IMG/VR virus record: IMGVR_UViG_3300011871_000003
DNA: 64,000 nucleotides
Source of the DNA: an uncultured virus (IMG/VR IMGVR_UViG_3300011871_000003)
Lineage: Duplodnaviria; Heunggongvirae; Uroviricota; Caudoviricetes
Direction: 5' to 3' (one strand)
Shown here: one piece after another, positions 8,420 through 60,673 of the stretch
Numbering within the stretch: position 1 is the first letter of the stretch
Layout: the number at the start of each line of letters is the position of its first letter
Translations under genes and position numbers: made by a program
The notes under the pieces: model-generated
What the model was told of the DNA's origin: nothing
What the model saw: the letters and a program-made list of their open reading frames with translations, nothing else
The model's database searches: none

Positions 8420-8878
8420 TTAATGAACTTCGTTTTGCTCTTTGATTAACTGAATAACATTTTTAAACATTGGTTCAATACCGTAAGGTCTAAAAAATAT
8501 ATTATCTCGAATAACTACATTGAAATCATCTTTCGTTTCACTATCCATCATACTTGAAAGTCCAATAGTTTCATAATCCATTTCAAAAATAGGTTTAGCT
8601 GTCATAAAACCGCTAACTTTAGGATATCCTTGTTCAGCTTTATCCATTTTATTAGCCAACAAAAGCATAACAATCTGAATATTTTGCAGGTTTTTATTTG
8701 TTTGCTCTACATCACTACTCATAGAAAATGCGATTTTGTTTGTATTTTCATTTGGGTCTTTACCTGCTGCAGCAAGCCCAAAAGATTGTTTTAAGAGATT
8801 ACAGAAGATAATAGCGCTTTCTTCGTTATCATGATTAACGGTGAGGTTAATATCGTATCTCATTTTAAATCCAAACAT
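8420..8878 (-). CDS. hypothetical protein
   Basis: 152 aa, AGGAG SD. Confidence 0.7.
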   Translation of the reverse strand: MFGFKMRYDINLTVNHDNEESAIIFCNLLKQSFGLAAAGKDPNENTNKIAFSMSSDVEQTNKNLQNIQIVMLLLANKMDKAEQGYPKVSGFMTAKPIFEMDYETIGLSSMMDSETKDDFNVVIRDNIFFRPYGIEPMFKNVIQLIKEQNEVH

Positions 8879-9110
8879 AATCTAACTCCTATGATGTTTT
8901 TGATGATTCATTATACTATAAATGCAGGTAAAATCAAAGGTGTTTTATGCTTTTATAATAAATATAGTTAGTGCAATCTTTTATAAAATAAAATATAGGT
9001 AAAACTTAATATATAAAATAGTCATGAAAACGGATTTTTATACCTATAAAACGATTGATTCCAATCTATGATAAATGGTAAAATACTACTTTAAACAAGA
9101 GGAAGAATGA

Positions 9111-9428
9111 ATGACGAATATGATTGTTTCGATGAGCTTGGATTATGGTCGTTGTGGTAAAGTGAAAGGTGTTTTTCTTGTAAGCAAAGAGGATTTTGAG
9201 CTTGCTAAAAAACTGAATCCACAAGTCTATTTTGGTGAGATTCTTGGTAAACATTCAGAAGTTTATTGTGATTTTAATGAAATTTCATTTGAGGTAAAAA
9301 CAGAAGATCAGGAAAAAGTTAACGCACTGATTGAAATGGATATGCATTCTAGTGGTTACGATCCGTTTGAATACCTTGAAATGCATTCGCCTGAATGGAG
9401 GGAAGGTGAAGTAAATAAAGTAGGATAA
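9111..9428 (+). CDS. phage hypothetical protein
   Basis: 105 aa; YFGEILGKHSEV motif. Confidence 0.75.
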   Translation: MTNMIVSMSLDYGRCGKVKGVFLVSKEDFELAKKLNPQVYFGEILGKHSEVYCDFNEISFEVKTEDQEKVNALIEMDMHSSGYDPFEYLEMHSPEWREGEVNKVG

Positions 9429-9603
9429 TGTATAAAATATTACTCATTATCTCTTAAAATCATAGTTAATGTGTAAAATATTACACATTAGCTTGTTTCT
9501 CTCCGAAAGATAAAATAAATAAAAAAACAGTTGCAAGTGACAACATGGAATGTTATATTATGTTTATTGAAGCAATATACTAAACTTTTCTTTGGAGAAT
9601 AAA

Positions 9604-9738
9604 ATGAACGAAGTAAAACTGAACGGTGCTAAGTCTATGGTTATGCAGACTCTGTTTGCTTCTAAGACACAAGTAGACCGTAAGAAAAACGCAAAGCTCA
9701 TGCGTAAAGATAAGCACAAAGGCAAGTCCTTTGAGTGA
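9604..9738 (+). CDS. ArfA-like small basic protein (44 aa)
   Basis: Manual translation ...TLFASKTQVDRKKNAKLMRKDKHKGK; LF-x14-MRKxKH spacing as in E. coli ArfA; GGAG SD, own terminator. Confidence 0.5.
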   Translation: MNEVKLNGAKSMVMQTLFASKTQVDRKKNAKLMRKDKHKGKSFE

Positions 9739-9746
9739 TGAATGAG

Positions 9747-9770
9747 AAGGCGGCGCGAGTCGCCTTTTTT
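9747..9770 (+). terminator. intrinsic terminator
   Basis: AAGGCGGC-GCGA-GTCGCCTT followed by a T run. Confidence 0.8.
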
Positions 9771-9793
9771 ATTGCATAAAAAAGAGAATAAAA

Positions 9794-10434
9794 ATGATTA
9801 CACAAGAAGAATTTTTAACCGAAGAGTATATCAGTGAAATTTTTAAAACAGGTCAATGGAGTGAGCATGGAGCCTGTATTGAGCAATACATAGATGATAA
9901 TCATGAAAATGATGATTTTCCAGAAGAGTTCAGAGAATATGATGTTCATTTTTTTGATGTTTTAAAGAGTGAGTCATTCCAGAAACATGGCTTCCTGTTC
10001 GTTTCAGATATGCTAAAGAATGGTTAGAAAAGGATCTGTTAAGTTGTCGTTCAGATGATGGATTATATATTATAAAAAGAAAGATTTTCTGCAGTAATGA
10101 AACATTAACTCAATGTCAGGAGAAAGATATTGATATTGGTCGTTTTTGGACTACTTTACAGCCAGAGGCATACAATGGCTCGTTATCAGAAAGCAATCCA
10201 GTTGACTTGGTTGTTTACGCTAAAGTATCTTTAGATGATATTGATTTTACTGAAACAATGCGTTCTCGTATGGATTACACCAATGGTGATATGGAAAGTG
10301 AGATATATGTTAAAAAAGAATCCATTCCTATTTTTATAAAGCTATCGTGGATTGTTGATAATGAAATAAGAGATGTTGATTGTATAACAGAAGAGAGAGA
10401 ACTCAGATTAAAAGAAAAAGCGAGCAATGTTTGA
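9794..10434 (+). pseudogene. hypothetical gene split by a frameshift near 9980 (or an assembly error)
   Basis: A second frame from ~9982 (TWLPVRFRYAKEWLEKD...) is open into the 10207..10434 ORF. Confidence 0.6.
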
Positions 10435-10489
10435 TTGTCATTATAAAGTGGTGTTATAATATTTCATAAATTCAATCAGGATAAATATT

Positions 10490-10759
10490 ATGTCAGATAA
10501 TAATACTATGAATAAGATTTTAGTAATTGGAAGTGGTTCTAGAGATGGAATTATTGGTAAAAATCTCATAAAATCACTACAAGAGAAAAATATAAAAGTT
10601 GAAAAAATGATGGGTTTTGATTTTGAAACTCTTTCTGATGTTAATTTCTTTAATATTAAAGGAAAATATAGTATAGAGCCGCCTTTTTATCCCGGTCGAT
10701 CTCGAAAAGATTATAAAGATTTTACGAAAAACTCAAAGCGCTTTCTAAAAGGACGCTAA
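10490..10759 (+). CDS. hypothetical protein
   Basis: 89 aa, AGGA SD, terminator follows. Confidence 0.6.
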   Translation: MSDNNTMNKILVIGSGSRDGIIGKNLIKSLQEKNIKVEKMMGFDFETLSDVNFFNIKGKYSIEPPFYPGRSRKDYKDFTKNSKRFLKGR

Positions 10760-11048
10760 TCATATAAGCTCTGCTAATGCAGAGCTTTTTATTAAATTAA
10801 TATATAGGAAAATATATGGGATTTTCTAATAAAATGTGCATGTTATCAAACACGCCAATAGCAGAAGGTAGTAAGGTTAAGTTATTCTTTTTAGTTGCTG
10901 AAGGAAAATATGGGGCACCTATTTTTAATTACATTTTTGAAAGAATATATTGAAGATCCAGATATAGAACTCACTATTTTCTTTTAAATGACAATAGAAG
11001 CTGTTATACTAGCTCTTATTCGTAAGGGCTTTTTTATTTTGAGGATTT

Positions 11049-11357
11049 ATGAATTTATACCACATTACCAGTAAAAAGAATGCTGACAAAATAGCTGTAG
11101 AAGGTTTTAAACCTCTGATTGGTAAAAATTCTATGGCATTAGGAGAGCCTCAACCAGCAATTTATTTTTTCCCAAGTATAAAAGAAGCAGAAGAAGGGCT
11201 ATCTAATTGGCTTGGAGAACTGTTTGAGGAAGATGAAGAAATCCAGTTGATAACCGTAAATGGTTCTGGATTAACTTTATATTCTGTTATTAGTTTTGAG
11301 GTATTTTGTTTAGAGCCTGTATCAAAAGATAGAATCATCAGTATTCAGGGGGTATGA
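11049..11357 (+). CDS. putative ADP-ribosyltransferase-fold protein
   Basis: LYHITS...I..EGFKP...IYF pattern typical of small ART-like phage proteins. Confidence 0.45.
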   Translation: MNLYHITSKKNADKIAVEGFKPLIGKNSMALGEPQPAIYFFPSIKEAEEGLSNWLGELFEEDEEIQLITVNGSGLTLYSVISFEVFCLEPVSKDRIISIQGV

Positions 11358-11366
11358 GGATATAGT

Positions 11367-11738
11367 ATGCTAATGCAAATTCTACGCTTAGAAATGCCGA
11401 ATGGTGATGGTATTTATAGGAATGCCGAAAAAAGCATATGGAAACGTGTAACAAAAGATTTTGAAGATACCTCTCTTCATCCATTACCTCATCTTGATCC
11501 TAAGTTGCGTTTTGATGATTTATCAGATTATCACTATATTTTCGGATTTGAGAGTGTAGAACATTACCATAAATGGGTCTTCAATCCTTATTGGCGCATT
11601 CAGCTTGGAAAACTTGGAGCTGTTTTATCTACTTATGAAATTGATTCTTCAAATGTAAGGCAAGGATTGTCTCAACTGATTTTTAAAAGAGATAAAGCTA
11701 AATTATTATCCCAAGTAGATCCATTTTTCTTTAAATAA
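11367..11738 (+). CDS. phage hypothetical protein
   Basis: 123 aa, GAGG SD. Confidence 0.7.
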   Translation: MLMQILRLEMPNGDGIYRNAEKSIWKRVTKDFEDTSLHPLPHLDPKLRFDDLSDYHYIFGFESVEHYHKWVFNPYWRIQLGKLGAVLSTYEIDSSNVRQGLSQLIFKRDKAKLLSQVDPFFFK

Positions 11739-11851
11739 AAGGATATCAAATGAGTATTAAACAAGAAATCGCAAACAAATTAAGTGTTTTGATAAAAGAT
11801 AATGATTAAAAAAAATATTCTGGTAAAGATCAGTTTATCCAAAAATATCGT

Positions 11852-11883
11852 AAAACCTCGTTCTTCAGGGCGTGGAGTTGTCA
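11852..11883 (+). mobile_element. possible IS200/IS605-family end remnant
   Basis: AAACCTCGTTCTTCAGGGCGTGGAGTTGTCA resembles the subterminal hairpin of TnpB-carrying IS ends; no transposase nearby. Confidence 0.3.
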
Positions 11884-11990
11884 ATAAGATTAGCGGAATA
11901 AAATAAAATAATAAGGCTATGCTTTAAAATAATTGTATAAAGATAAATCATATATTATACTGACATAATAATATGGGTAGGTGGAATAAT

Positions 11991-13149
11991 ATGTTAAAAA
12001 CAAAAAATAAAGTAGAGTTTGAAACCAAATCTAGAAGTTTGAATAAGACACTTAAGAAAAAAAGTATACTGAAAACAATAGCTATGGGATTTGCTATGAT
12101 TGTTGGATCTATCGCTGCCTACGATGTCGCTATAACTGCTTCCAATATAAAACATACAACATTTATAGTAGATTATAAAGTAGCAAATGATGCGAAATTA
12201 AATGATTACAGCACATTTAAAAAAATGATATCTGCTGTTCCGTATTCTGATGCTGATTTTAAAAGAGATCTGTTAACTTTTGAATATATTTATGGTTATA
12301 AAGGTGGTGATAATCCAGCATTTCAAAAAGCCTTTATGTTCAATAAAGGAAACGGAGTTAGTTTAAATAGAATAATGTCAGTTAATATGAAGATAAATAA
12401 TCCTATAGCATATTATAGTGAACTAGAATTATTAACCAGAAATCACTCTGAAAAAGAAGTATTCGATAATAATAAGTATCCAGAGTTTAATAAAAAAATC
12501 CAAGAAGTTTATAAGAAAAATACAAAACATAAAGCAGATTTGAATGATGTTAGATTAATGAAAAGTGTGTACAGTAATTTTATTTTAAATGATACTTTTT
12601 ATTATAAAAGTGACAAAAAGATGTATGATAATTTAAAGCAAATATTAATTGAAAATGGATTTGATGGACAAACTTTTTTTATAGATAAGAGTTATATAAA
12701 AAATATAAATGATGTTATTAAGAAAACGAATTATGATTATAATAGTCCAGAAATAAAAAAAGTTTACAAGCAAAATGATGAAGTCGTTAATTCAATAAAT
12801 CAGAGAGTAAAAACTTATTATGAGAATGGAAATTATGATAAACTAAAAGAAAATGCTCAGAACATCATCGGGATGAGATTAGTTACGCCTCAAACTTCAG
12901 CAGAAGGCAAATTNNNNNNNNNNAGAAGATCCAGTGAGAAAAATGGCAGGTAACTATGTTTTAGGAACTCCGATTTATATGACTATAGATTATATGATGA
13001 ATAAAAAAGATGTTGATGAAGAAGATGTTAATGAAGAAGATAATCCAATAATAAATCAGGCAAAATTTTATGAAAAATATTTTGGAAATCTAACACCAGA
13101 AAAGGAAAAGTATTACAAAGAGGGTTATGATTATATATTGTTTATGTAA
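11991..13149 (+). CDS. membrane-anchored hypothetical protein, paralog family B (copy 1), split by N gap at 12914-12923
   Basis: Both pieces align colinearly with the intact 13201 ORF (VPYSDADFKRDLLTFEY; GNLT.EKE.YY..GY). Confidence 0.75.
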
Positions 13150-13200
13150 AAAATATAGCAATATTGAATATTAAGTTATTTAAAAAATAGGTAAAATAAT

Positions 13201-14295
13201 ATGCTAAAAACCAAAAATAAAGTAGAGTTTGAAAGTCGATCTAAAACTTTAAATCAAAATATAAGAAAAAGAAGCAAACTAAAAAAAATGGCTATAGGTT
13301 TTGCTATGGTGATTAGTTCTATTGCTGCATATGATGTAGCTGTTACTGCGACTAATATTCACCATATCAACTCGACCATAAACTATAAAGTAGAAAATAA
13401 TGCTAAACTGGATAATTATAATTATTTTAAAGAGCAAATGTCTACGGTTCCCTATTCTGATGCCGATTTCAAAAGAGATTTGTTAACATTCGAATATATG
13501 TATGGCTATAAAGGTGGTGATAATCCAGCTTTTCAAAAAGCTTCAAACTTTAAGAAAGATAGTGGGATAATGTTAAAAGCCATGCTATCTCTAAATAGTC
13601 AGTATGCCAATCCCGGATTAGTATATAGTGAGTTAAATAACATTACAAAAAATCATTCTGAAAAAGAAGTGTTTGATTATGATAAATATCCAGAATTGAA
13701 TCAAAAAATATCTCAAGTATACGAAAAAGATAAAATATATAAAAAAACATTCGATGATGTTAACATGAGAAAACAAATGTCTACCTACTTTATGATTTCA
13801 ACAGATTATAATGCACAAACTGAAAGGCATGTATATGATAATTTAGGGAAGTTATTAGTTGAAAATGGATTTAATAAAGATATTTATTTCCCTGATAAAG
13901 ATTATTTAAAGAAAAAGAATGACGCATATAAGCAATATGGATATAATAGTAAAGAAGAAAAAAGAGTAGATGAAGAAAACATAGAAATAATTAATACGCT
14001 AAATGCAGATATAAAACATTACTATGAGACTGGAAATTATGATAAACTAAGGGAATTGTTTAAAATTGGTAATAGCTTCATGCATGTAGTAGCTATAGAT
14101 CCAATCAATGAAGTAGGAAATAATTATAATATAGGACTTCCTGTTTATACAATATTAGACTACGCTATAAATAAAAATGATCCTATGGATAAAGTAATTT
14201 CTCAGGCTCAATACGTTGAAAAAAATTGGGGCAATCTAACAAAAGAGAAAGAAGAATATTATAATAAAGGTTATTTTGAAATTTTATTCAGATAA
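13201..14295 (+). CDS. membrane-anchored hypothetical protein, paralog family B (copy 2)
   Basis: 364 aa; single N-terminal hydrophobic helix; tandem paralog of the 11991 gene. Confidence 0.8.
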   Translation: MLKTKNKVEFESRSKTLNQNIRKRSKLKKMAIGFAMVISSIAAYDVAVTATNIHHINSTINYKVENNAKLDNYNYFKEQMSTVPYSDADFKRDLLTFEYMYGYKGGDNPAFQKASNFKKDSGIMLKAMLSLNSQYANPGLVYSELNNITKNHSEKEVFDYDKYPELNQKISQVYEKDKIYKKTFDDVNMRKQMSTYFMISTDYNAQTERHVYDNLGKLLVENGFNKDIYFPDKDYLKKKNDAYKQYGYNSKEEKRVDEENIEIINTLNADIKHYYETGNYDKLRELFKIGNSFMHVVAIDPINEVGNNYNIGLPVYTILDYAINKNDPMDKVISQAQYVEKNWGNLTKEKEEYYNKGYFEILFR

Positions 14296-14557
14296 AAAAT
14301 GAGGAAAAATAATGAAAGAAGATAAAATGGTAAGCAACGAAACAAAAGTTGATGTAAGGATTGCTGTAAAAACAGGGAAAACGGGAAGAGGTAAAGTGCT
14401 CGAAGCTAAAGTTTTAAAAGAAAGGCTTGAGGAAAGGAAGAGATTAGGTTTATCATAATAATCAGTATAAAAGACACATTCCGATGTGTCTTTTTGCTTG
14501 TTCAGGACTAAGTTTTTTGCTACAATGTTGACATATTAACGATGACGAGAAACCAAA

Positions 14558-15219: not shown

Positions 15220-15585
15220 ATGAAAGTTTGGATCGATGATGAACGCAACCCTAAAGATTATCTTTCAGAAAAAGATGCTGAAAGTGTTATTTGGATTAAA
15301 GAAATTCGTGAAGCATTGAATTTATTTCTAAAGAAATCAGAAGAAATTGAAGTTTTGTATCTAGATTATTACATGGATAGTCCTGTTATTTTTGGTTCTG
15401 AATTTGTTTTCTATGCAAAACGCGGTGGAAAGAAAATGTTTCCTAACCTAAAATCTATTTATCTTCATTCAAACGATGATGATGCTATTGATGAACTAAT
15501 GGAATTAGCTCCAAATTTAGAAAATCAAGGGATTAGTCTCGAAGTTGCGCCTTATCGTAATAAAAAAGGAAATTGCCGTGGATAA
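15220..15585 (+). CDS. cyclic-phosphate-processing receiver-domain protein (copy 1)
   Basis: KVWIDDERNP, LYLDYYMD, IYLHSND motifs. Confidence 0.6.
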   Translation: MKVWIDDERNPKDYLSEKDAESVIWIKEIREALNLFLKKSEEIEVLYLDYYMDSPVIFGSEFVFYAKRGGKKMFPNLKSIYLHSNDDDAIDELMELAPNLENQGISLEVAPYRNKKGNCRG

Positions 15586-15937
15586 TAAAAATATCTGGAT
15601 TGATGATACACGTAATCCTCATCATTTTTTGCCAAAAACAGAAGCAGAAAATGTTTTGTGGTTGAAAAATATTCGCCAAGCTATTCAGTATGTATCAGAG
15701 CATTCAAAAGAAATTGAAGTATTATATCTTGATTATTATATGGATGATAACTTTCTTTTTGGTTCTGAATTCGTTTACGAGGTTTTATACAGTGGACGAG
15801 AAGGATATCCTCTGCTGAAAACTATCTATCTACATTCCAGTGACGACAATGTTATTGAAGATTTAATGCAACATGAAGAAGAATTTAAAGAAATGGATAT
15901 TTCTTTAGTTATTGCCCCTTATCGCAGAGATTATTAA
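15578..15937 (+). CDS. cyclic-phosphate-processing receiver-domain protein (copy 2)
   Basis: IWIDDTRNP, LYLDYYMD, IYLHSSD; GTG start after AAGGA. Confidence 0.6.
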   Translation: MDNKNIWIDDTRNPHHFLPKTEAENVLWLKNIRQAIQYVSEHSKEIEVLYLDYYMDDNFLFGSEFVYEVLYSGREGYPLLKTIYLHSSDDNVIEDLMQHEEEFKEMDISLVIAPYRRDY

Positions 15938-16197: not shown

Positions 16198-16734
16198 ATG
16201 AACATGAAAGTAACAGAGTCAGATGCTATTGCTCTTAAACGTGCTGAAGCAGCTCGCGCTATTGATGGTCATAATGCTGTTATTGCTTATTGTGAAATGA
16301 CAAAAGATCGTGTTAAGGATGTTGAATACAATGCCAAAACTCGTGATTTCGTAAAAGCTATTGCTGCTGAATTGTCTGAAAAATATCGTGATTTTCGTAG
16401 TTACATGCTGAAAAGCTGTAAAAAAGTGGATTTGATTGCAACGATTGTAAAAGTATGTGATCGTACAATTGATATTGAAAATGAAAGAATGGCAAATACT
16501 TTAGCTTCTCTGGAAAAAATTAAAGAAAGAGAAAAAGAACATGCTATTTATGAATCTCGCCGTGCTCTTGTTGATCGTGTAATGCCTTATGAAAATGAAT
16601 ACATTAAAAGTTCTGATAACGCTCGTAAAGCTATGCGTGAATGGGATTGTCTGATTGGTTGTATTGAGAGTGGTCATATCACAGAAGAAAACCTTCATGA
16701 ATATGGAATTGATTTGTCAGTTCCAGCAGAATAA
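16198..16734 (+). CDS. hypothetical coiled-coil protein
   Basis: 178 aa, GAGG SD, promoter at 16140. Confidence 0.75.
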   Translation: MNMKVTESDAIALKRAEAARAIDGHNAVIAYCEMTKDRVKDVEYNAKTRDFVKAIAAELSEKYRDFRSYMLKSCKKVDLIATIVKVCDRTIDIENERMANTLASLEKIKEREKEHAIYESRRALVDRVMPYENEYIKSSDNARKAMREWDCLIGCIESGHITEENLHEYGIDLSVPAE

Positions 16735-20747: not shown

Positions 20748-20821
20748 GTCTTTGTAGCTTAACGGTAGAGCAGGAGTCTCTAAAACTCTGGATGTGGGTT
20801 CGATTCCCTCCATTGACACCA
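20748..20821 (+). tRNA. tRNA with CUA anticodon (amber suppressor candidate)
   Basis: Cloverleaf with GGAGT-CTCTAAA-ACTCT anticodon arm, TTCGA T-loop and encoded CCA; two U-U mismatches in the acceptor stem and one in the T stem. Confidence 0.75.
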
Positions 20822-33909: not shown

Positions 33910-34128
33910 ATGGGAAAATCAATAGAAGATTACTGTGTTGAAGCAAATAAAAGAAGTGCTCAATACCTCAAAGAAGCTAATGAAAGAAGTGATGCATATT
34001 TAAAAGCTGTAAATGAGAGAACAAATAAGTATATTAGTTCTTTAAATCGAACAGGTATGCTTCTATTGACCTTATGTGTATTAGATATTGGCTTCATTTT
34101 CTATGTTGTTTGGTTTAAACCTTTCTAA
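33910..34128 (+). CDS. small membrane protein with three 11-aa repeats
   Basis: Y..EANKRS, YLKEANERS, YLKAVNERT repeats; C-terminal TM helix. Confidence 0.65.
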   Translation: MGKSIEDYCVEANKRSAQYLKEANERSDAYLKAVNERTNKYISSLNRTGMLLLTLCVLDIGFIFYVVWFKPF

Positions 34129-34144
34129 AATAAGAGGTAAAAAA

Positions 34145-34312
34145 ATGTTAAGTTTTGAAGAACGAAAAGCACTTCTTAATAAAGCGCTATCAGAATATAC
34201 ACCAGAAGAGTTAGCTAAAAAGTTAGACTCATATCCAAAAGGTGGTCCAACGATTGAAGAATTTGGAAAACAGCTACAAAAACAGATTGGAATATTACAA
34301 AAAAAGCCCTGA
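34145..34312 (+). CDS. small hypothetical protein
   Basis: GAGG SD before MLSFEERK. Confidence 0.6.
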   Translation: MLSFEERKALLNKALSEYTPEELAKKLDSYPKGGPTIEEFGKQLQKQIGILQKKP

Positions 34313-51016: not shown

Positions 51017-51182
51017 AGCTTAATCTTTACGCGAACTTTGCGATAAAGTGATGGGAATGCCATAGAAGAAAGATAACTGAAATCCGACACGCCGATATCA
51101 CCATACGTCCGTATGGATGATGGAATGATAGGAGATGCTCATGATGAATATCGGAGCCTGTTATCCACTTAAAGATTAAGCT
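51017..51182 (+). ncRNA. structured RNA motif C, copy 2
   Basis: AGCTTAATCTTTA/TAAAGATTAAGCT closing stem; AAATCCGA...TATCGGAGCCTG core. Confidence 0.55.
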
Positions 51183-51326
51183 ATTTTTGTCTCCCTTTTA
51201 GCCCCCTTCGTGGGGCTTTATTTTTGCATAAAACTCTATATTTTTATATCAATATTATGATAAAATATTTCTACTTACTGCTACTTTAAAGTGTATTCTT
51301 ATCAATCAATAACAAAGGGTTATAAA

Positions 51327-51863
51327 ATGAAAAGCAAGATTACAAAATTTGGTATGATGTTAGTGTGTATTGCAACAACCATTATGTTTTGGTGTTCCTC
51401 TGCTCAATCATCAACAACATATAATTCAACCTGTTACTCAAATTGTAAAGAAAAAGATGTAACCAAAAGTTTAGGTTCAAGTAGTAATATTTGGAAGCTA
51501 AACAATAATAGATATGAAGATCTTGTTTTGTCGTATTCATCCCTATTATCAAAAAGTGGTTCTTTTGAGTTGTCTGGAACGTATACAGATTCCAATGGAG
51601 AAAAGGTTAGGTTAAGTGGAAAATCATTTGATGTTGATGATAGTGAAATTTATTGGCCTATGTTCGGTAATGTTAAAATCACATTTAAAAATGGAAAAAT
51701 CTTCTTAACAGGTGATGAGAAAATATTTAAATCGACACAAGAAGAGTTTATAAATAAAGTGGATAAAGCAGCTTATATGTTAACTATTTATGCTTCAAAT
51801 CACGATGATGATCTTAAACCTGTTAAGTTACTTGATGGTAGCGAAGTTGTTAAAAAACGTTAA
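51327..51863 (+). CDS. secreted hypothetical protein
   Basis: Signal-peptide-like N-terminus. Confidence 0.7.
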   Translation: MKSKITKFGMMLVCIATTIMFWCSSAQSSTTYNSTCYSNCKEKDVTKSLGSSSNIWKLNNNRYEDLVLSYSSLLSKSGSFELSGTYTDSNGEKVRLSGKSFDVDDSEIYWPMFGNVKITFKNGKIFLTGDEKIFKSTQEEFINKVDKAAYMLTIYASNHDDDLKPVKLLDGSEVVKKR

Positions 51864-54216: not shown

Positions 54217-55353
54217 ATGAAAGAACAAAATGATTTCCAAAAAACACTGTTTACAGATCTAACCAATCTCGTAAAAAATAGTTCTGGTGAGTTTTTAACT
54301 AAAGATTATAACATCGAAGGTCATCCAAATCTTATTTATCGTGTATTTACATACATGATTCCTCGTTTTTCTGATTTTAAAAATCCAAACGGTCTGAACT
54401 GTCGTGGAACAATGTTCCTTGTTAATAAAGAAACAGGTGAAGCTCAACTGGTTGCTCTTCCAATGAAAAAGTTCTTCTCTCTTGGTGAAGGAGAAAAAGA
54501 AGATCTGGCTATTAAAATTGAAGACGCAAAACATGCTTATATTAAAGAAGATGGTTCTTTGCTAACAAGTTATATTTCTCCAATTGATGGGAAAGTAAAA
54601 CTCAAAAGTAAAAATGTTCCAGAATACCTAAATAAAGATGCTGTAATGAAAAGCGTTTCTGATGCTCTATTTGCTGAACTGCAGGAAATCAGCGAGAGTG
54701 GTATTTCTGTAGATCTTGAACTGACTACACCAGAAAACCGTGTAATGATGGAATATTCTGATTATAATGTCCATGTTCTTAAAGCTCGTTCTCTTGAGAC
54801 TGGAGAATATATTGATATTCGCTCTAAAGAATTCGCTGAAAAATATCCAGTAATTGCTGAACATCTTGTGAAAGAAGTTCCTGTAAGCAGTGTAGATATT
54901 AATCGTAAAGATATTGAAGGGTATGTTCTTGAGTTTGCTGATGGAAGGCTGCTCAAAATTAAAACTATTCCGTATCTGAGTATTGTAAGTGTTATTAGTA
55001 TTCAAGACCTCAATAAAGAAGGTGAAAATCTTTATCGTGCTGCTTTAGACGAAGTGCTTGATGAAGTTCGCTCTATGTTTGTTTACAAGGCTCGTAGCCC
55101 TAACTATAATCTTGATCAGCGTCTTGCTAATGTAGATAAAGTTGAAGCATATGCAAAACGAACGTATCACGATATGGTTAAAAAAGTAAATGAGCTATAC
55201 GAGAGTAATAAACATCTAGAACGTGGTGATTTTGCGCGTGCTGTTAAAGATGAAAAACAACTAATGCCTTTGCTTATGCAGCTATATACAGGTGGTAAAG
55301 CTGATTACAAACAAACAGCTATTAAAATTTATGCTAAAAATGCTCTAAAATAA
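54217..55353 (+). CDS. rnlA: T4-like RNA ligase 1
   Basis: CRGTMF, PMKKFFSLGE, motif I KEDGSL, motif IV EGYV, motif V KIK (rnlA in the T4 gp63 sense, not the RNase LS toxin). Confidence 0.9.
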   Translation: MKEQNDFQKTLFTDLTNLVKNSSGEFLTKDYNIEGHPNLIYRVFTYMIPRFSDFKNPNGLNCRGTMFLVNKETGEAQLVALPMKKFFSLGEGEKEDLAIKIEDAKHAYIKEDGSLLTSYISPIDGKVKLKSKNVPEYLNKDAVMKSVSDALFAELQEISESGISVDLELTTPENRVMMEYSDYNVHVLKARSLETGEYIDIRSKEFAEKYPVIAEHLVKEVPVSSVDINRKDIEGYVLEFADGRLLKIKTIPYLSIVSVISIQDLNKEGENLYRAALDEVLDEVRSMFVYKARSPNYNLDQRLANVDKVEAYAKRTYHDMVKKVNELYESNKHLERGDFARAVKDEKQLMPLLMQLYTGGKADYKQTAIKIYAKNALK

Positions 55354-55476
55354 CATTTATCCGCTATAGGAGGTAAACGAGATTTATCCCCTGTAGCGGA
55401 TTTTTACCTTATTATCCCCCGTAGGGGATATTTGCATTATTATCCTTTGTAAGGGATAAAAAATGAGGAAGTAATA

Positions 55477-55971: not shown

Positions 55972-56382
55972 ATGTTTTTTTATTTAATTATTGTTAACTT
56001 TTTAGTCGCTGCCTCAGTATCTTTGGTAGTGATATCTTTCTTTTCCAAATCCATAAATAATATATTGCAACGAATCATTAATGATCCGATTAATACATCA
56101 TGGGCAAAATATACCAAATTTGCTGGAATGGTAGTAGGGATATCATCAGGTATAAGAGTATATGATGTGGAGAAATATATAACGCCTGTAACATACAGTA
56201 AAGATGGTAATAAGATAATAGAACTTACATCAGAGCGTTGGTTTCTTGAAGTATACAGAACAGTAATAGAAACTCTGCAAGGACTTGCTTGGATGATGTT
56301 GCTGTTTTTTGTTATTGCTTTATTGGCTTATGTTATAGTGAGATGGGCTGAAATGAAATATCCAAACTCTAAAAAAGAATAG
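55972..56382 (+). CDS. membrane protein
   Basis: Three hydrophobic segments; AGGAGG SD. Confidence 0.75.
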   Translation: MFFYLIIVNFLVAASVSLVVISFFSKSINNILQRIINDPINTSWAKYTKFAGMVVGISSGIRVYDVEKYITPVTYSKDGNKIIELTSERWFLEVYRTVIETLQGLAWMMLLFFVIALLAYVIVRWAEMKYPNSKKE

Positions 56383-56441
56383 AAAACAAACTGTAAATAT
56401 GCTATAATGCCTCTTTAAAACTCCATTAAAGAGGCTTTTTT

Positions 56442-57536
56442 ATGACTCAATATAATCCCCGTTATGACACGAAAATTCAACCATTTAATATTGGTATTAT
56501 CAGAAAATGGGTGCGAGACAAGGACCTTAAAGAACTCAAGCAATGGCTTGATGAAGGTGAGCCACATAAGCGTCTTATGAAAGAGGCTATTTCTGAAGCA
56601 ACCATATCTGAATGGCCTGATGGGGTAAAAGCTTTATTTGAGAAAGACTGGATTAATCTGGAAGCCAAAATAAAACAGGTGGTTGGTTGGGTCCATTTTT
56701 GTAAAAAAGATGATGTCTGGATTTTTGCCAGAGATTATGTGTTTGCGGATAAAAAGTTAATTAAAAAGTTCAGTTTTAAATTATTTTGGGAAGCTAAAGA
56801 AAAAGGGAAAGAATCACTTTTTGATGAGAGTAAAGTTGATTTCACGGATGATGAAGCTTCTTCATTATTAACATATCGTTATATGTTTCCTGATAAACAT
56901 GTTAGTGAAGAAGGGAGGGCTGAATATAAGACAAAGCGTGATTATTTATTAAGTAAGCCTGTTCTTTTTATTCCTTATCAGCTAATAGATCTATTAGATT
57001 TTGAACATGCCTCTTATGTCGTTGAGATGTTAGAAAAACATGGAAAAAATCCCATTTTTAAAACAAAAGAAGAACTTTTTGTTTTTGCTTGTGCCGTAGG
57101 AGTTTATTACCAAGCAGCTATAAATCATGCTAATAAATGTAATAAAAGTGATACGGAGAAAGATAGTCTCAAGAAAGAGCAAGCTTTCATGTTGAAATTT
57201 TTAAAAGAACAAGATTGCATGATGGAAATGGATTTAACGCCTAAATTCTTAGAAAAAAATACATGGATTAACTATAATCTTGAGGAAAATTATGGTGATT
57301 TGTGTGCTATGAATCAATATAGATTAACGTTTGGAACATTGAAGTTAAAATATTTTAGAACAGATTATAACAAGGAAAATCAAAAACTACCTGAAAGCCA
57401 AAAGGTCAAGTTAGCTTGGTATTGGATAGGAGGGATGAATCCTGAAAAGAGGGATTTTCAAGGTGAAAAATATGTTATGACGGATGATGATAAGAAGTAT
57501 GCTGAAAAAGAGTTTGAGAAACTTTTAAAAGTATAA
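56442..57536 (+). CDS. hypothetical protein
   Basis: 364 aa; no Cas motif recognised. Confidence 0.8.
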   Translation: MTQYNPRYDTKIQPFNIGIIRKWVRDKDLKELKQWLDEGEPHKRLMKEAISEATISEWPDGVKALFEKDWINLEAKIKQVVGWVHFCKKDDVWIFARDYVFADKKLIKKFSFKLFWEAKEKGKESLFDESKVDFTDDEASSLLTYRYMFPDKHVSEEGRAEYKTKRDYLLSKPVLFIPYQLIDLLDFEHASYVVEMLEKHGKNPIFKTKEELFVFACAVGVYYQAAINHANKCNKSDTEKDSLKKEQAFMLKFLKEQDCMMEMDLTPKFLEKNTWINYNLEENYGDLCAMNQYRLTFGTLKLKYFRTDYNKENQKLPESQKVKLAWYWIGGMNPEKRDFQGEKYVMTDDDKKYAEKEFEKLLKV

Positions 57537-57706
57537 ACAAAAAAGAGGCCCCGGTCTCTTTTTTATGAATAGATTTGTGAATAGATAAAAATATTAATAT
57601 TTTATTATTTTTCATACACTTAAGTAAAAACATGAATAGATAAAATACTTGTGCAGGCTCGTCTTTTTTGCTATAATAAACGTATCTTAAAAAAGAGGAT
57701 TAAAAC

Positions 57707-58075
57707 ATGTTTAACACAATCGAAGCGCCGAAAGTTGACCTCACTATCTTTTCTGGTGAAACATTAGATATTGTAAAACAAGTTTTTAAAAATGATGGTA
57801 GTCTTTACAAGTCTAAACCAACCAAAGCTTCTGGAGAAGCTAAATACGTTTGGCGTATGCTTGCTTTTTATATGTCTACTAATCGCCAGCATCAGTGTAT
57901 GCCTGTTACAGCAGATTTTGATTTAGAAACTTACGATGAAAACGGTAAGTGGTCTGCTAACCTTGCTCATAAGAAAGCAAAAGAACTAGATGAAGTAGTT
58001 AACAATGTTTTAAAAACAATCCCAAACAATAATCTTCCGGGGTTAAAGCGCTGGAAAAAAGCTTTTGGTTATTAA
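57707..58075 (+). CDS. phage hypothetical protein
   Basis: GEAKYVWRM.AF...HQCMP; promoter at 57649. Confidence 0.75.
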   Translation: MFNTIEAPKVDLTIFSGETLDIVKQVFKNDGSLYKSKPTKASGEAKYVWRMLAFYMSTNRQHQCMPVTADFDLETYDENGKWSANLAHKKAKELDEVVNNVLKTIPNNNLPGLKRWKKAFGY

Positions 58076-58095
58076 TTAAATAAAAAGAGGATCAT

Positions 58096-58266
58096 ATGGG
58101 AATTGCTAAGAAAAAAATTACTATTTCAGAAGAACGTTATTTTGAATTGCTAAACAAAGAATCAAAGTTAACAGCTCTAGAAAATGCTGGTGTGGATAAC
58201 TGGAGCGGTTATAGTGAAGCAATGGAAGATCATGACGAATACGATAAGTATAAAAAAGAAGAATAA
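58096..58266 (+). CDS. small phage protein (56 aa)
   Basis: Manual translation with L.ALE.AGVDNW.GY..A motif; GAGG SD. Confidence 0.7.
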   Translation: MGIAKKKITISEERYFELLNKESKLTALENAGVDNWSGYSEAMEDHDEYDKYKKEE

Positions 58267-58320
58267 ATAATAAAATCGAATTATAAAGCCTATAACATTG
58301 ACTTGTTATAGGCTTTTTTT

Positions 58321-58498
58321 TATTCTTAAAATATATTTGCGCTCTTTAACAATTTGGATTATAGTAACCCTAATTATTTTTATTAATATTTTATTTCTTA
58401 TAAATCAATAAGTTATAAGTATATAAAATTAATTAGGTAATTATAGGTTTTATTATATATCTTATTGAAAAATAAGAATATTTATAAAATTTATTCTT
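58321..58498 (+). promoter_or_regulatory. type I-F-like CRISPR leader
   Basis: AT-rich; IHF consensus AATCAATAAGTTA at 58403-58415 flanked by inverted repeat CCTAATTA (58369) / TAATTAGG (58430). Confidence 0.75.
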
Positions 58499-60266
58499 AT
58501 TTGCCCCATACATGGGGCTTAAAAGCAATTTCAGAATCACTGAATGCGTAATCTAAAAATTTGCCCCATACATGGGGCTTAAAAGCTTGATTTATAAAGC
58601 TTTTTTTTTGGTCACTATATTTGCCCCATACATGGGGCTTAAAAGTCACCATGAACGCTCAGTTAGCATCAGAAAGCAATTTGCCCCATACATGGGGCTT
58701 AAAAGTGCAAGATGGTCATAACACGTCCGGGCAACTCGATTTGCCCCATACATGGGGCTTAAAAGGCTTTATCGGCTACTGTCGGTGCAGAAGATGCAAT
58801 TTGCCCCATACATGGGGCTTAAAAGAGAGCCAGTGTTTACCGAAGGTCTTATTCGTTTATTTGCCCCATACATGGGGCTTAAAAGCGGAGTAAATGATGA
58901 ACTAACATGGACGGGAGCATTTGCCCCATACATGGGGCTTAAAAGAAACGATGAGGAAACAGATTAATGAAAGCAACAATTTGCCCCATACATGGGGCTT
59001 AAAAGTCTCTACCAGTTCTTTTATACCGCGATAAAAAAATTTGCCCCATACATGGGGCTTAAAAGTAGATCTGGTGAGAAAATTTTTACCTATGGAGCAT
59101 TTGCCCCATACATGGGGCTTAAAAGCTTAAAGGTGATCAATGGCCTACGGACGTTAGAAATTTGCCCCATACATGGGGCTTAAAAGTAGAAAACTTTCCC
59201 AATATGCACTTAACTCTCCATTTGCCCCATACATGGGGCTTAAAAGTTCAATATTATCATCGATATTTTCGCGTATATCATTTGCCCCATACATGGGGCT
59301 TAAAAGAACTCTTTAACTTGTTCTTTTTTAGCCATCTTTATTTGCCCCATACATGGGGCTTAAAAGAACTGATGTAATTCAAGTTTCTGATATTAGAAAA
59401 TTTGCCCCATACATGGGGCTTAAAAGGCGAACAAATAAAGTCCTGATTTATCAGGGCTTATTTGCCCCATACATGGGGCTTAAAAGAAAAATTGTTTTAC
59501 AAAGTATAGATTCTCTTATATTTGCCCCATACATGGGGCTTAAAAGTTAACTGCTGTATTTCTTCCATAATACAGAACCATTTGCCCCATACATGGGGCT
59601 TAAAAGTTGAGGTGTTCCGATCTTAATTGGATCTGGATTATTTGCCCCATACATGGGGCTTAAAAGTGTTTTTGCTTTTTCTCCCCAAATATACGTATTA
59701 TTTGCCCCATACATGGGGCTTAAAAGGTCAAAATCAAGTCTATCAGCAGACTGGTCAGAATTTGCCCCATACATGGGGCTTAAAAGATTGACCAATTACC
59801 TATTATTGCGTGTCCTGCTATTTGCCCCATACATGGGGCTTAAAAGCTAAAATTTACTGGTGTTATATCCAAAACAATTATTTGCCCCATACATGGGGCT
59901 TAAAAGAGTGTCAACAATTGCCCCGCCTCCTTCAGGGTTATTTGCCCCATACATGGGGCTTAAAAGTGTAGTTAACGTTAAGCGTTCAGATTACGCAGGA
60001 TTTGCCCCATACATGGGGCTTAAAAGTACTAATCTGTTATTTTCTTCTTGCCTTATTGCATTTGCCCCATACATGGGGCTTAAAAGAATAACCGCACCTG
60101 TCAAAATCCTGTCAGCAACATTTGCCCCATACATGGGGCTTAAAAGTTTCTTTTAATGGTTTTCCACCAACCCAATACCATTTGCCCCATACATGGGGCT
60201 TAAAAGGTTCTTTGGGTTTTGAGTTATAAAGTTTGGTATATTTGCCCCATACATGGGGCTTAAAAG
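58499..60266 (+). CRISPR. CRISPR array, 30 repeats / 29 spacers, type I-F-like
   Basis: Identical 27-nt repeat ATTTGCCCCATACATGGGGCTTAAAAG; 33-nt spacers (one 34 nt); hairpin followed by an 8-nt CTTAAAAG handle. Confidence 0.98.
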
Positions 60267-60404
60267 ATCTTGAATTTTATTTAAAAATGGTTAAAAAAGA
60301 AAAAACCTGCTAATTTCTCAAAAAATGAGTCATTAAGCAGGTATTAGAATAATCATAATAGTTCAGAGATGTTTTGGTGTCAAATTTTATGATTTTTTTA
60401 AAAA

Positions 60405-60602
60405 TCAAGAACAAAACAAAACAGAAGAAGTAATGATTAAAATAATAAATCCTAATGTATACGCCCAATCACCTTTTGGTTCATAAAAACTATGCCTATC
60501 TTTCAAGCTATTAAGAAATTTAGCATCTCTCATTTGAATCCATCCACCAATAATGAGGAAAAAGGCAAGACAATAAAAGAAAACATAAAGAAAAGTACTC
60601 AT
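60405..60602 (-). CDS. small two-TM membrane protein
   Basis: GGAGG SD; two hydrophobic helices. Confidence 0.65.
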   Translation of the reverse strand: MSTFLYVFFYCLAFFLIIGGWIQMRDAKFLNSLKDRHSFYEPKGDWAYTLGFIILIITSSVLFCS

Positions 60603-60673
60603 TTAATACCTCCAATAAAAGTTGTTGTTTATATGAACTATCCGGTCCCACCGGATAGTTGAAAAATAGTTTA

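Follow-up and report, generated by a model that had tools for sequence, protein, structure and literature searches.

A long type I-Fv-family CRISPR array with no adjacent cas genes in a giant enterobacterial phage

The subject of this report is a CRISPR array at positions 58499–60266, on the plus strand, of a 64,000-nucleotide stretch of uncultured virus DNA (IMG/VR record IMGVR_UViG_3300011871_000003; Caudoviricetes), the whole of which is called the window here. The array comprises 30 repeats and 29 spacers, would be transcribed left to right, and is a genuine member of the I-Fv family with altered geometry, lying apart from its cas genes in a giant enterobacterial phage. Both its assignment to type I-Fv, a Cas8-less variant of type I-F, and the classes of its targets are highly probable. 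Tentatively, and with a little less than even confidence, we favour the wider reading that this is a working I-Fv (I-F2-like) array of a giant Enterobacteriaceae phage whose cas genes lie in cis at a distant locus.

RESULTS

Repeat and array architecture

All 30 copies of the 27-nt repeat ATTTGCCCCATACATGGGGCTTAAAAG are identical and lie on the plus strand only. The 29 spacers between them are all unique and measure 33 nt, except for spacer 11 with 34 nt, giving a 60-nt period that becomes 61 nt once; at least three near-identical direct repeats of 23–50 nt with unique spacers of constant length between them are the general mark of a CRISPR array. The last repeat at the distal end is intact and is followed by no degenerate copy. 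Our recount of every repeat bears out a first-pass annotation of the same DNA, made from the sequence alone, that had reported 30 identical copies without a degenerate terminal one; its figure of 29 spacers also stands. The feature start that it placed at 58321 still belongs to the tail of the preceding gene's terminator, and the conserved leader begins only at 58333. It had also called the array far longer than usual for phages, in agreement with the median of six repeats given for huge phages in the available part of PMC7162821.

As RNA, the repeat folds at −11.1 kcal/mol into a 6-bp stem (GCCCCA/TGGGGC) with a 4-nt loop, followed by seven unpaired bases, and 2 of 200 shuffled repeats fold equally well. 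Type I-F repeats have this plan, in which a hairpin precedes a 3′ handle of 8 nt resembling CTTAGAA(A/G); here (C)TTAAAAG follows the stem-loop. The handle CTTAAAAG is identical at seven of eight positions to that of the annotated I-Fv repeat GTTCACTGCCGCATAGGCAGCTTAGAAG of an Acinetobacter lwoffii plasmid (L120), and the two repeats also agree in layout, which runs 5 nt, stem, loop, stem, 8 nt, apart from a loop of 4 nt as against 5 nt. It is this shorter loop that accounts for a geometry of 27 + 33 on an unchanged 60-nt period, where type I-F has a 28-nt repeat and a 32-nt spacer. As to the family, the proposal of an I-F array holds; within it, the array belongs to the Cas8-less I-Fv variant instead of classical I-F.

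The exact repeat did not occur in IMG/VR, where the 16-nt hairpin alone gave 30 single, unrelated matches. Its 23-nt core had no match in 185,579 species-representative genomes, and blastn with the whole array found no repeat match in 5,426 complete Escherichia coli genomes or in 72,556 plasmids. No CRISPR-DR family of Rfam fits the repeat, the best reaching 18 bits against a gathering score of 39.

Association of the repeat with I-Fv operons

A metagenome scan located the repeat at 18 loci, spread over 17 contigs. One of these contigs, PPYF01370302.1 (L079/L081), has an array of 89 copies of the identical repeat, with a leader that is the same as that of the window at 162 of 166 positions, and the order from there is cas3 (905 aa), cas7fv, cas5fv, a cas6-like gene, cas1, a 124-aa open reading frame (ORF) and a second array of 18 repeats with a loop variant. 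PADLOC recognized Cas3fv (2e-151), Cas7fv (1e-94), Cas5fv (3e-29) and Cas1 (2e-31); the Cas7fv reached 294.7 bits on the NCBIfam model cas_Cas7fv, for which the equivalog cut-off is 200, and matched the Cas7fv structure PDB 5o6u at 1.6e-69. The combination that marks type I-Fv, Cas7fv and Cas5fv with no Cas8f, is thus found beside this repeat on L079/L081 and not in the window, where none of 97 ORFs is a cas gene. The earlier suggestion of a divergent Cascade (CRISPR-associated complex for antiviral defence) encoded elsewhere in the phage's own genome is borne out as to the existence of a matching Cascade, which lies on another contig.

The L079 operon departs from the usual I-F pattern in several parts. 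Its Cas3 aligns to positions 108–940 of the 951-position Cas3fv profile, which indicates that the Cas2 part is missing and that there is no Cas2/3 fusion. Its Cas1 scores highest on generic and I-E-type Cas1 models, and the 223-aa ORF at the cas6 position has weak matches to Cas6/Cas6e hidden Markov models (6.6e-5; Pfam 8.7e-4). The Cas7fv has no close relative in IMG/VR or among the species-representative genomes and no match in isolate phages, and a 510-aa flank protein has no relative in IMG/VR. The flanks encode a NinI-like phosphatase, a PilS-like pilin and a radical-SAM protein (phrog_27142) that are 22–44% identical to proteins of the nearest relative of the window, an IMG/VR contig of 341,648 bp (G002; the handles G001 and G002 denote one record). 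We read L079 as a related giant-phage backbone, and it may represent an unseen part of genomes like that of the window.

Diverged operons with the same repeat (65–72% DNA identity) are present at L066, L070, L074 and L078. L070 and L078, both of assembly ERZ808232, have the array beside cas7fv, that of L070 between cas3 and cas7fv on a contig that reaches both genes; the assembly contains five repeat-bearing contigs of similar stated coverage (7.6–10.9). A cas-less relative of L079 is seen in L080 (OKEV01000093.1, ∼2159–2424), with four repeats of which three are mutated, of the array-1 type at the leader end and the array-2 type distally, and without a cas operon. Its leader-proximal spacer matches L079 cas3 (16352–16384) at 33/33 with a CC protospacer adjacent motif (PAM). 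This looks either like an anti-cas guide or like the trace of self-targeting, after which recombination between the two arrays removed the operon.

Sister arrays at the same site

L072 (24 repeats) and L076 (57 repeats) occupy the same site in the same backbone as the window array, with flanks mostly 85–99% identical, and both end distally in degenerate repeats. Perfect repeats number 30/30 in the window, 21/24 in L072 and 56/57 in L076, and the three arrays have a single spacer in common in total, between the window and L076, with none common to the window and L072; in addition, one spacer is common to L072 and L079 and one to the window and L075. Perfect repeats combined with almost wholly different spacers at one site point to ongoing spacer turnover. 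Altogether, this site is represented in four deposited assemblies with three distinct arrays: that of the window, one array in both OJZM01 and OKIN01, and one in PPYF01.

Targets and PAM

Targets were found for five of the 29 window spacers (all plus strand), in plasmids or in a sibling phage. Spacer 9 (59006–59038) matches 2.8-kb MobV plasmids of Klebsiella pneumoniae (L001) at 33/33, and spacer 10 (59066–59098) matches the same plasmid family at 33/33, the two targets being on the same plasmid strand and 465 bp apart. Spacer 18 (59547–59579) is identical at 33/33 to 2.3-kb E. coli plasmids, and spacer 29 (60207–60239) agrees at 30/33 with the replication-initiator gene carried by a 4.3-kb Citrobacter freundii plasmid, with a second target on a 4.1-kb E. 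coli plasmid (94% identical). The plasmids matched by these four spacers are of 2–4 kb and come from Klebsiella, Enterobacter, Citrobacter and E. coli. A CC lies directly 5′ of the protospacer in four of the five cases, including spacer 28, and the PAM position of spacer 9 is TT. Spacers that match foreign DNA beside a conserved PAM are what a CRISPR array is expected to have, and the CC that the first-pass annotation had anticipated from type I-F is what was found. For the other 24 spacers nothing matched, whether among isolate phages, plasmids and E. coli genomes or in G002, the window itself and the fetched loci, and comparison of the array with isolate phages gave chance-level matches only (E 0.5).

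The fifth target is in the sibling phage: spacer 28 (60147–60179) matches a 375-aa gene of G002 at 32/33 (50693–50725). G002 has tandem paralogues at 49433–50527 (364 aa) and 50607–51734 (375 aa), with ∼66% DNA identity, of which the window retains one (56442–57536), and the site in this gene that is homologous to the target (57418–57450) differs from the spacer at 9 or more of 33 positions. As the targeted paralogue is missing from the window and the remaining site is this different, the guide would attack the sibling and spare its own genome. No family of Pfam, PHROGs, PADLOC or NCBIfam matched these genes.

Together with the 18 other loci, the window has 582 spacers, of which 88 are counted twice owing to the overlap of L079 and L081, and 441 are distinct. 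For plasmid PAMs we used the best matches in 11 fetched plasmid loci with at most four mismatches and readable flanks, one match with 12 mismatches being dropped. CC was present for 24 of 30 plasmid-targeting spacers, and both CA cases have CC one base farther out; among phage or self targets it was present in three of four. The family-wide count of 27/34 (binomial P ∼1e-26 at a chance rate of 1/16) agrees with the 5′-CC PAM of the type I-F family.

By itself, the L079 array of 89 repeats finds matches in 164 plasmid records, every one of Enterobacterales (Klebsiella 72, Escherichia 28, Enterobacter 27, Citrobacter 20, Serratia 7, Salmonella 5, and others), mostly of 2.5–4 kb and some of ∼40–53 kb, and has no match in isolate phages. 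Sibling phages recur as targets, spacer 55 of L076 being directed with a CC PAM to the same 375-aa gene as window spacer 28, and spacer 22 of L079 matching G002 perfectly with a TC PAM. Spacers of L079, L069 and L071 match hypothetical genes of the ∼40–53-kb plasmids of Klebsiella, Serratia, Raoultella and Salmonella; these plasmids (e.g. L091, NZ_CP032206.1, 42 kb, linear) also encode ParA and ankyrin-repeat proteins, and they may be phage-plasmids. Proteins 75–76% identical to the Cas7fv of L079 occur in public records labelled Citrobacter koseri and Escherichia coli, which may be co-assembled phage contigs of 84–187 kb. Together, the plasmid targets and these labels lead us to assign the host to the Enterobacteriaceae.

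Leader, trailer and the variable insertion

The array is preceded by a non-coding, A+T-rich leader of 166 nt (58333–58498, plus strand). The earlier description of this leader as intact holds. It is nearly identical to that of the cas-adjacent L079 array, while the adjoining 150 nt upstream are unrelated between the window and L079 (85/156). A block of the leader, TTATAAATCA, is retained in the diverged leaders of L074 and of the second array of L081. The polarity of the array follows from the conservation of the leader across backbones, from the sister arrays, in which L072 and L076 are degenerate only distally, and from the side on which the PAM lies.

The leader contains a match to the integration host factor (IHF) consensus WATCAANNNNTTR at 58403–58415 (plus strand), between 7-bp inverted arms at 58397–58403 and 58413–58419. 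The first-pass annotation had noted this exact match, which is present, and had taken it, with a perfect 8-bp inverted repeat around it, as evidence of docking by Cas1-Cas2/3. The arms are 7 bp long, and the window has eight matches to the consensus where 12.9 are expected, i.e. no enrichment, so the site was dropped as a sign of function and the docking argument falls with it.

Upstream of the leader, an intrinsic terminator of a gp5.9-like gene (58285–58316, plus strand; 13-bp stem plus T run) is the last sequence common to the window and G002, which has no array. Collinearity with G002 extends over the whole window at mostly 89–99% identity and is broken only at 58339–60627, a 2.3-kb segment that takes in most of the leader, the array and the trailer and in place of which G002 has 809 unrelated bases (47643–48451); leader, array and trailer are hence a strain-variable insertion. 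The trailer (60267–60627) contains a hairpin and a 65-aa minus-strand ORF (60405–60602). Inherited as one with the array, it occurs in L072, L076 and L071 but not in G002. The terminal degenerate repeat of L072 and L076 is missing in the window, where it appears to have been deleted along with part of the last spacer.

Gene content of the window and its nearest relative

The window has ∼30% G+C and densely packed small genes mostly in the same direction. Among its 97 ORFs no Cas family was found in Pfam, PHROGs or PADLOC, among the eight ORFs flanking the array there was no Cas match in NCBIfam, and tblastn with the Cas proteins of L079 returned nothing from the window; the earlier statement that no cas genes adjoin the array stands. 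A 71-aa ORF far from the array gave a weak CARF-type match (E 0.003). Accessory genes encode a T4-type RNA ligase 1 (54217–55353), a DenV glycosylase, endonuclease VII, a NinI-like phosphatase, an RnlB/Dmd-like antitoxin and HNH endonucleases, and there are three tRNA genes.

Directly upstream of the leader lies a gene of the T7 gp5.9 RecBCD-inhibitor type (58096–58266), which is counter-defence-like, as are an RnlB/Dmd-like antitoxin (43095–43487), a PD-T4-9_B-like ORF (34088–34312) and two adjacent ORFs with cREC_REC domains (15220–15937). One tRNA (20748–20821; tRNA-Pyl by ARAGORN) has the anticodon CUA and is therefore of the amber-suppressor type; two tRNA-Leu genes adjoin it, in a 3.7-kb stretch (∼20.7–24.4 kb) that has higher G+C and is almost without ORFs. 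Stop-codon recoding, considered on account of this tRNA, was rejected: read-through of TAG or TGA gains neither coding density nor ORF length, and the standard code applies. At 55384–55458, between the RNA ligase gene and the next ORF, are 2.7 tandem, spacer-free copies of a 28-nt unit with a CCCCTGTAGGGG hairpin, which are not a CRISPR array and may be a terminator or regulatory repeat.

Megablast of 56000–64000 found no match among isolate phages. In G002 there are two tail-fibre genes, no Terminase_6N or Gp23 match, and no capsid, portal or terminase PHROG among 192 ORFs scanned. The lack of terminase and T4-type capsid matches suggests that G002 is the accessory arm of a larger genome, and hence that much of the genome to which the window belongs is unseen; the complete G002 phage genome may be much larger than 341 kb. 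PADLOC was applied to 150 of the 220 G002 ORFs of at least 140 aa outside the syntenic part, the other 70 and 10 boundary ORFs being left out. The longest G002 ORF (837 aa) is MutS-like, and paralogue families include seven PilS-like pilin matches, several GajA/PtuA-like ATPases, trypsin-like proteases and two GtrC-like translocases.

A further IMG/VR contig, G003 (388,594 bp), was abandoned as a guide to synteny when only 6 of 254 G002 ORFs were matched there. It comes from a T4-like jumbo phage that is only distantly related and gave matches to Gp23 capsid and terminase. At 8434–14489 (L088) it carries a minimal system of another kind, made up of cas3 (740 aa), a gene for a Cas7fv-like protein (358 aa), one for an unassigned 327-aa protein, and cas6b. 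Next to these genes lie 14 repeats (∼36 nt each, 66-nt period), and the ORFs scanned included no Cas1. Finally, the interval 57000–62000 is partly present in 20 sequencing-run rows from 12 studies, and at least half of its words occur in 14 of these rows, labelled animal gut, wastewater, food and microbial mat; six of the rows are RNA runs. No conclusion on habitat or expression is drawn from this.

DISCUSSION

A proposed working array with distant cas genes

Our results are consistent with the following course of events for a working array. Transcription of the array would start from the leader, a Cas6-type RNase would cleave every repeat at the 3′ base of its hairpin (GCCCCA/TGGGGC), and the products would be 60-nt CRISPR RNAs with the 8-nt 5′ handle CUUAAAAG. 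Cas5fv, Cas7fv and Cas6 would form a Cas8-less Cascade that finds targets with a 5′-CC PAM and recruits Cas3, while Cas1, with Cas2, would insert 33-nt spacers at the leader end. The guides would act on small host-resident plasmids and on sibling phages with a gene that this phage lacks. The matching cas3-cas7fv-cas5fv-cas6-cas1 operon is likely to be phage-borne rather than host-borne, and its preferred site would be in the same giant genome, outside the 64 kb. Perfect repeats, rapid spacer turnover and the size of the genome still unseen favour a distant operon in cis, as against the decay of the array in cas-less L080.

Several observations weigh against this reading. No cas gene lies within the 58 kb upstream or the 3.7 kb downstream of the window array, the same site in L072 and L076 has none up to 10 kb away, and every other array with this repeat and visible flanks is cas-adjacent (L066, L070, L074, L078 and L079/L081). 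Among the four assemblies that contain the window-type site, the metagenome scan found a cas-linked contig with the repeat only in PPYF01. No homologue of any L079 Cas protein was detected in full-length G002 (tblastn, six-frame); G002 is also without an array, so that its lack of cas genes leaves the question of cis or trans undecided. The operon itself presents difficulties: the Cas6-like protein of L079 has no BLASTP similarity to an annotated Cas6f, and the 124-aa ORF gains no support as a Cas2 from PADLOC or NCBIfam and only chance matches in a PDB sequence search (mean predicted local distance difference test score of the putative Cas2 in single-sequence AlphaFold2, 47.5).

The chief competitor is service in trans, in which the phage has no cas genes and its leader and array are expressed and extended only beside an I-Fv-bearing relative, be it through co-infection or as a resident element, and the array may be refreshed by recombination with the arrays of that relative. 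This is a substantial possibility, though we give it less credence than a distant operon in cis. It would fit the sharing of the leader with a cas-linked array while the adjoining DNA is unrelated, which implies a cassette that moved between backbones or was kept compatible. It would also fit the presence of L076 (array only) and L079 (array plus cas) under the same assembly prefix, the single spacers common to L072 and L079, to the window and L075, and to the window and L076, the cas-adjacent position of all other arrays with visible flanks, and the absence of a cas-linked contig from OJZM01 and OKIN01, which have the L072-type array. Moreover, cas-less L080 retains a perfect, CC-flanked spacer against L079 cas3 that is usable only via the Cas proteins of another genome. 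On the other side, perfect repeats and near-complete turnover in arrays of 24–57 repeats imply frequent adaptation, which is hard to reconcile with occasional co-infection; the one clearly cas-less relative, L080, has a decaying four-repeat array; most of the window's genome is unseen; and absence from fragmentary assemblies is weak evidence. Taken furthest, the array would be a mobile, cas-less guide cassette among giant enterobacterial phages that works only via the I-Fv machinery of a co-infecting or co-resident relative, which we hold to be possible but less likely than not. Were it true, guides and nucleases would be inherited separately, cas-less phages would free-ride on cas-bearing ones or turn against them, as the L080 spacer against cas3 would do, and the small plasmids of the host would be the main prey of phage-borne immunity.

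The other explanations are much less probable. One of them sees in the array a relic, recently stranded after being copied from a cas-bearing relative, whose expression and extension have ceased. This would account for the lack of cas genes in view, the apparent loss of the terminal degenerate repeat and the 24 spacers without a match in any collection searched; with all 30 repeats identical, different spacer sets at the same site in three assemblies, and four spacers that match their targets at 32–33 of 33, we consider it improbable. Slightly more doubtful still is the borrowing of a chromosomal or plasmid-borne type I-F system of the host, which the first-pass annotation had put forward. The I-F-like geometry and the CC PAM would suit it, as would the C. 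koseri and E. coli labels of Cas7fv relatives and the huge-phage arrays with host-like repeats that, in the available part of PMC7162821, may use host Cas. The proposal is not upheld, given that the repeat is absent from the representative genomes, E. coli genomes and plasmids searched, that all operons seen with it lie among phage-type accessory genes of 29–34% G+C, and that the labelled records may themselves be phage contigs. A foreign array joined to phage flanks by misassembly can be set aside almost entirely. Identical-repeat arrays do break and mis-join when assembled from short reads, many of the contigs with this repeat consist of array alone, and ∼7.5-kb contigs with the cas operon are common; however, the leader- and trailer-side junctions recur in the independent contigs L072 and L076, and the trailer side also in L071, which in effect rules out a chimeric join, and ordinary reads bridge unique 33-nt spacers between 27-nt repeats.

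Implications

CRISPR in phages was known before from ICP1 and from metagenomic huge phages, the arrays of the latter being mostly short and few of their systems having adaptation genes. What differs here is a giant-phage family tied to Klebsiella, Enterobacter, Citrobacter and E. coli, with long, fast-changing arrays of up to 89 repeats and a Cas8-less I-Fv system that includes Cas1. As far as the sequences tell, the window array is one of a group of long, active arrays that, where their prey can be seen, are directed mainly at small plasmids and sibling phages. Plasmids of these bacteria, either small ones of 2–4 kb or others of roughly 40 kb, make up the great majority of the identifiable targets, with sibling phages in addition. 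This spectrum points to a conflict of phage versus plasmid that has hardly been described so far, and the spacers form a natural catalogue that ties uncultured phages to hosts of clinical interest. The window further indicates that leader and array can lie far from, or without, cas genes, which makes the use of Cas proteins in trans between viruses testable. The compact I-Fv variant, with its 27-nt repeat, 33-nt spacer, unfused Cas3 and unusual Cas6, may also interest tool builders.

Comparison with known systems

Type I-Fv recognizes a CC/GG PAM. Our references for it were Shewanella putrefaciens CN-32 (PDB 5o6u) and the PGAP-annotated A. lwoffii plasmid NZ_CP046295.1, and the available parts of the sources place the type in Shewanella and on plasmids of Acinetobacter and Legionella. 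Like both references, L079 has a Cas8-less effector with Cas7fv and Cas5fv. The A. lwoffii plasmid also has the hairpin and 8-nt handle (CTTAGAAG there, CTTAAAAG here), the 60-nt period and long arrays, with 121 repeats. These references differ in having a 28-nt repeat and 32-nt spacers, where the present array has 27 nt with a 4-nt loop and 33 nt, and an unrelated stem sequence. They differ also from the L079 operon, in which Cas3 has no Cas2 domain, the order is cas3-cas7-cas5-cas6-cas1 as opposed to cas1-cas3-cas7-cas5-cas6, Cas1 is best on generic or I-E-type models and the Cas6-like protein is not similar to Cas6f, and they have neither the giant-phage carrier nor an array that stands alone as in the window.

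Among phage-encoded systems, the type I-F system of Vibrio phage ICP1 resembles ours in combining adaptation genes with arrays directed against another mobile element of the host cell; as described in the available part of PMC10161043, its Csy1-4 and Cas2/3 adjoin the arrays, which target a chromosomal satellite. The differences are the I-Fv effector, the remoteness of the window array from cas genes, and targets that are small plasmids and a sibling phage. For huge phages, the accessible text of Al-Shayeb et al. (2020, PMC7162821) gives the six-repeat median already cited, almost no systems with adaptation genes, and a proposal that some arrays use host Cas. The cas-less arrays among them are similar to that of the window in their large genomes, in the lack of adjacent interference or adaptation genes, in anti-phage spacers and in the suggestion of Cas from elsewhere. 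As far as that text goes, they are compact and have host-like repeats where explained, unlike the 30 repeats here (24–57 in the sister arrays), the matching phage-borne operon that includes Cas1, and the targeting mostly of plasmids.

A full-text literature search, which was not exhaustive, found no I-Fv system on phages and no phage arrays aimed at small plasmids. Mini-arrays of archaeal viruses, with one to a few spacers, are involved in inter-viral conflict. An isolated, horizontally acquired type I-F array is described from the Pseudomonas aeruginosa chromosome in the available portion of PMC13142298. The window array shares with the mini-arrays and, to the extent that this portion describes it, with the P. 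aeruginosa array the character of a mobile leader-array without cas genes for which compatible Cas proteins are encoded elsewhere, and differs from both in being a long, fast-changing array of a giant phage.

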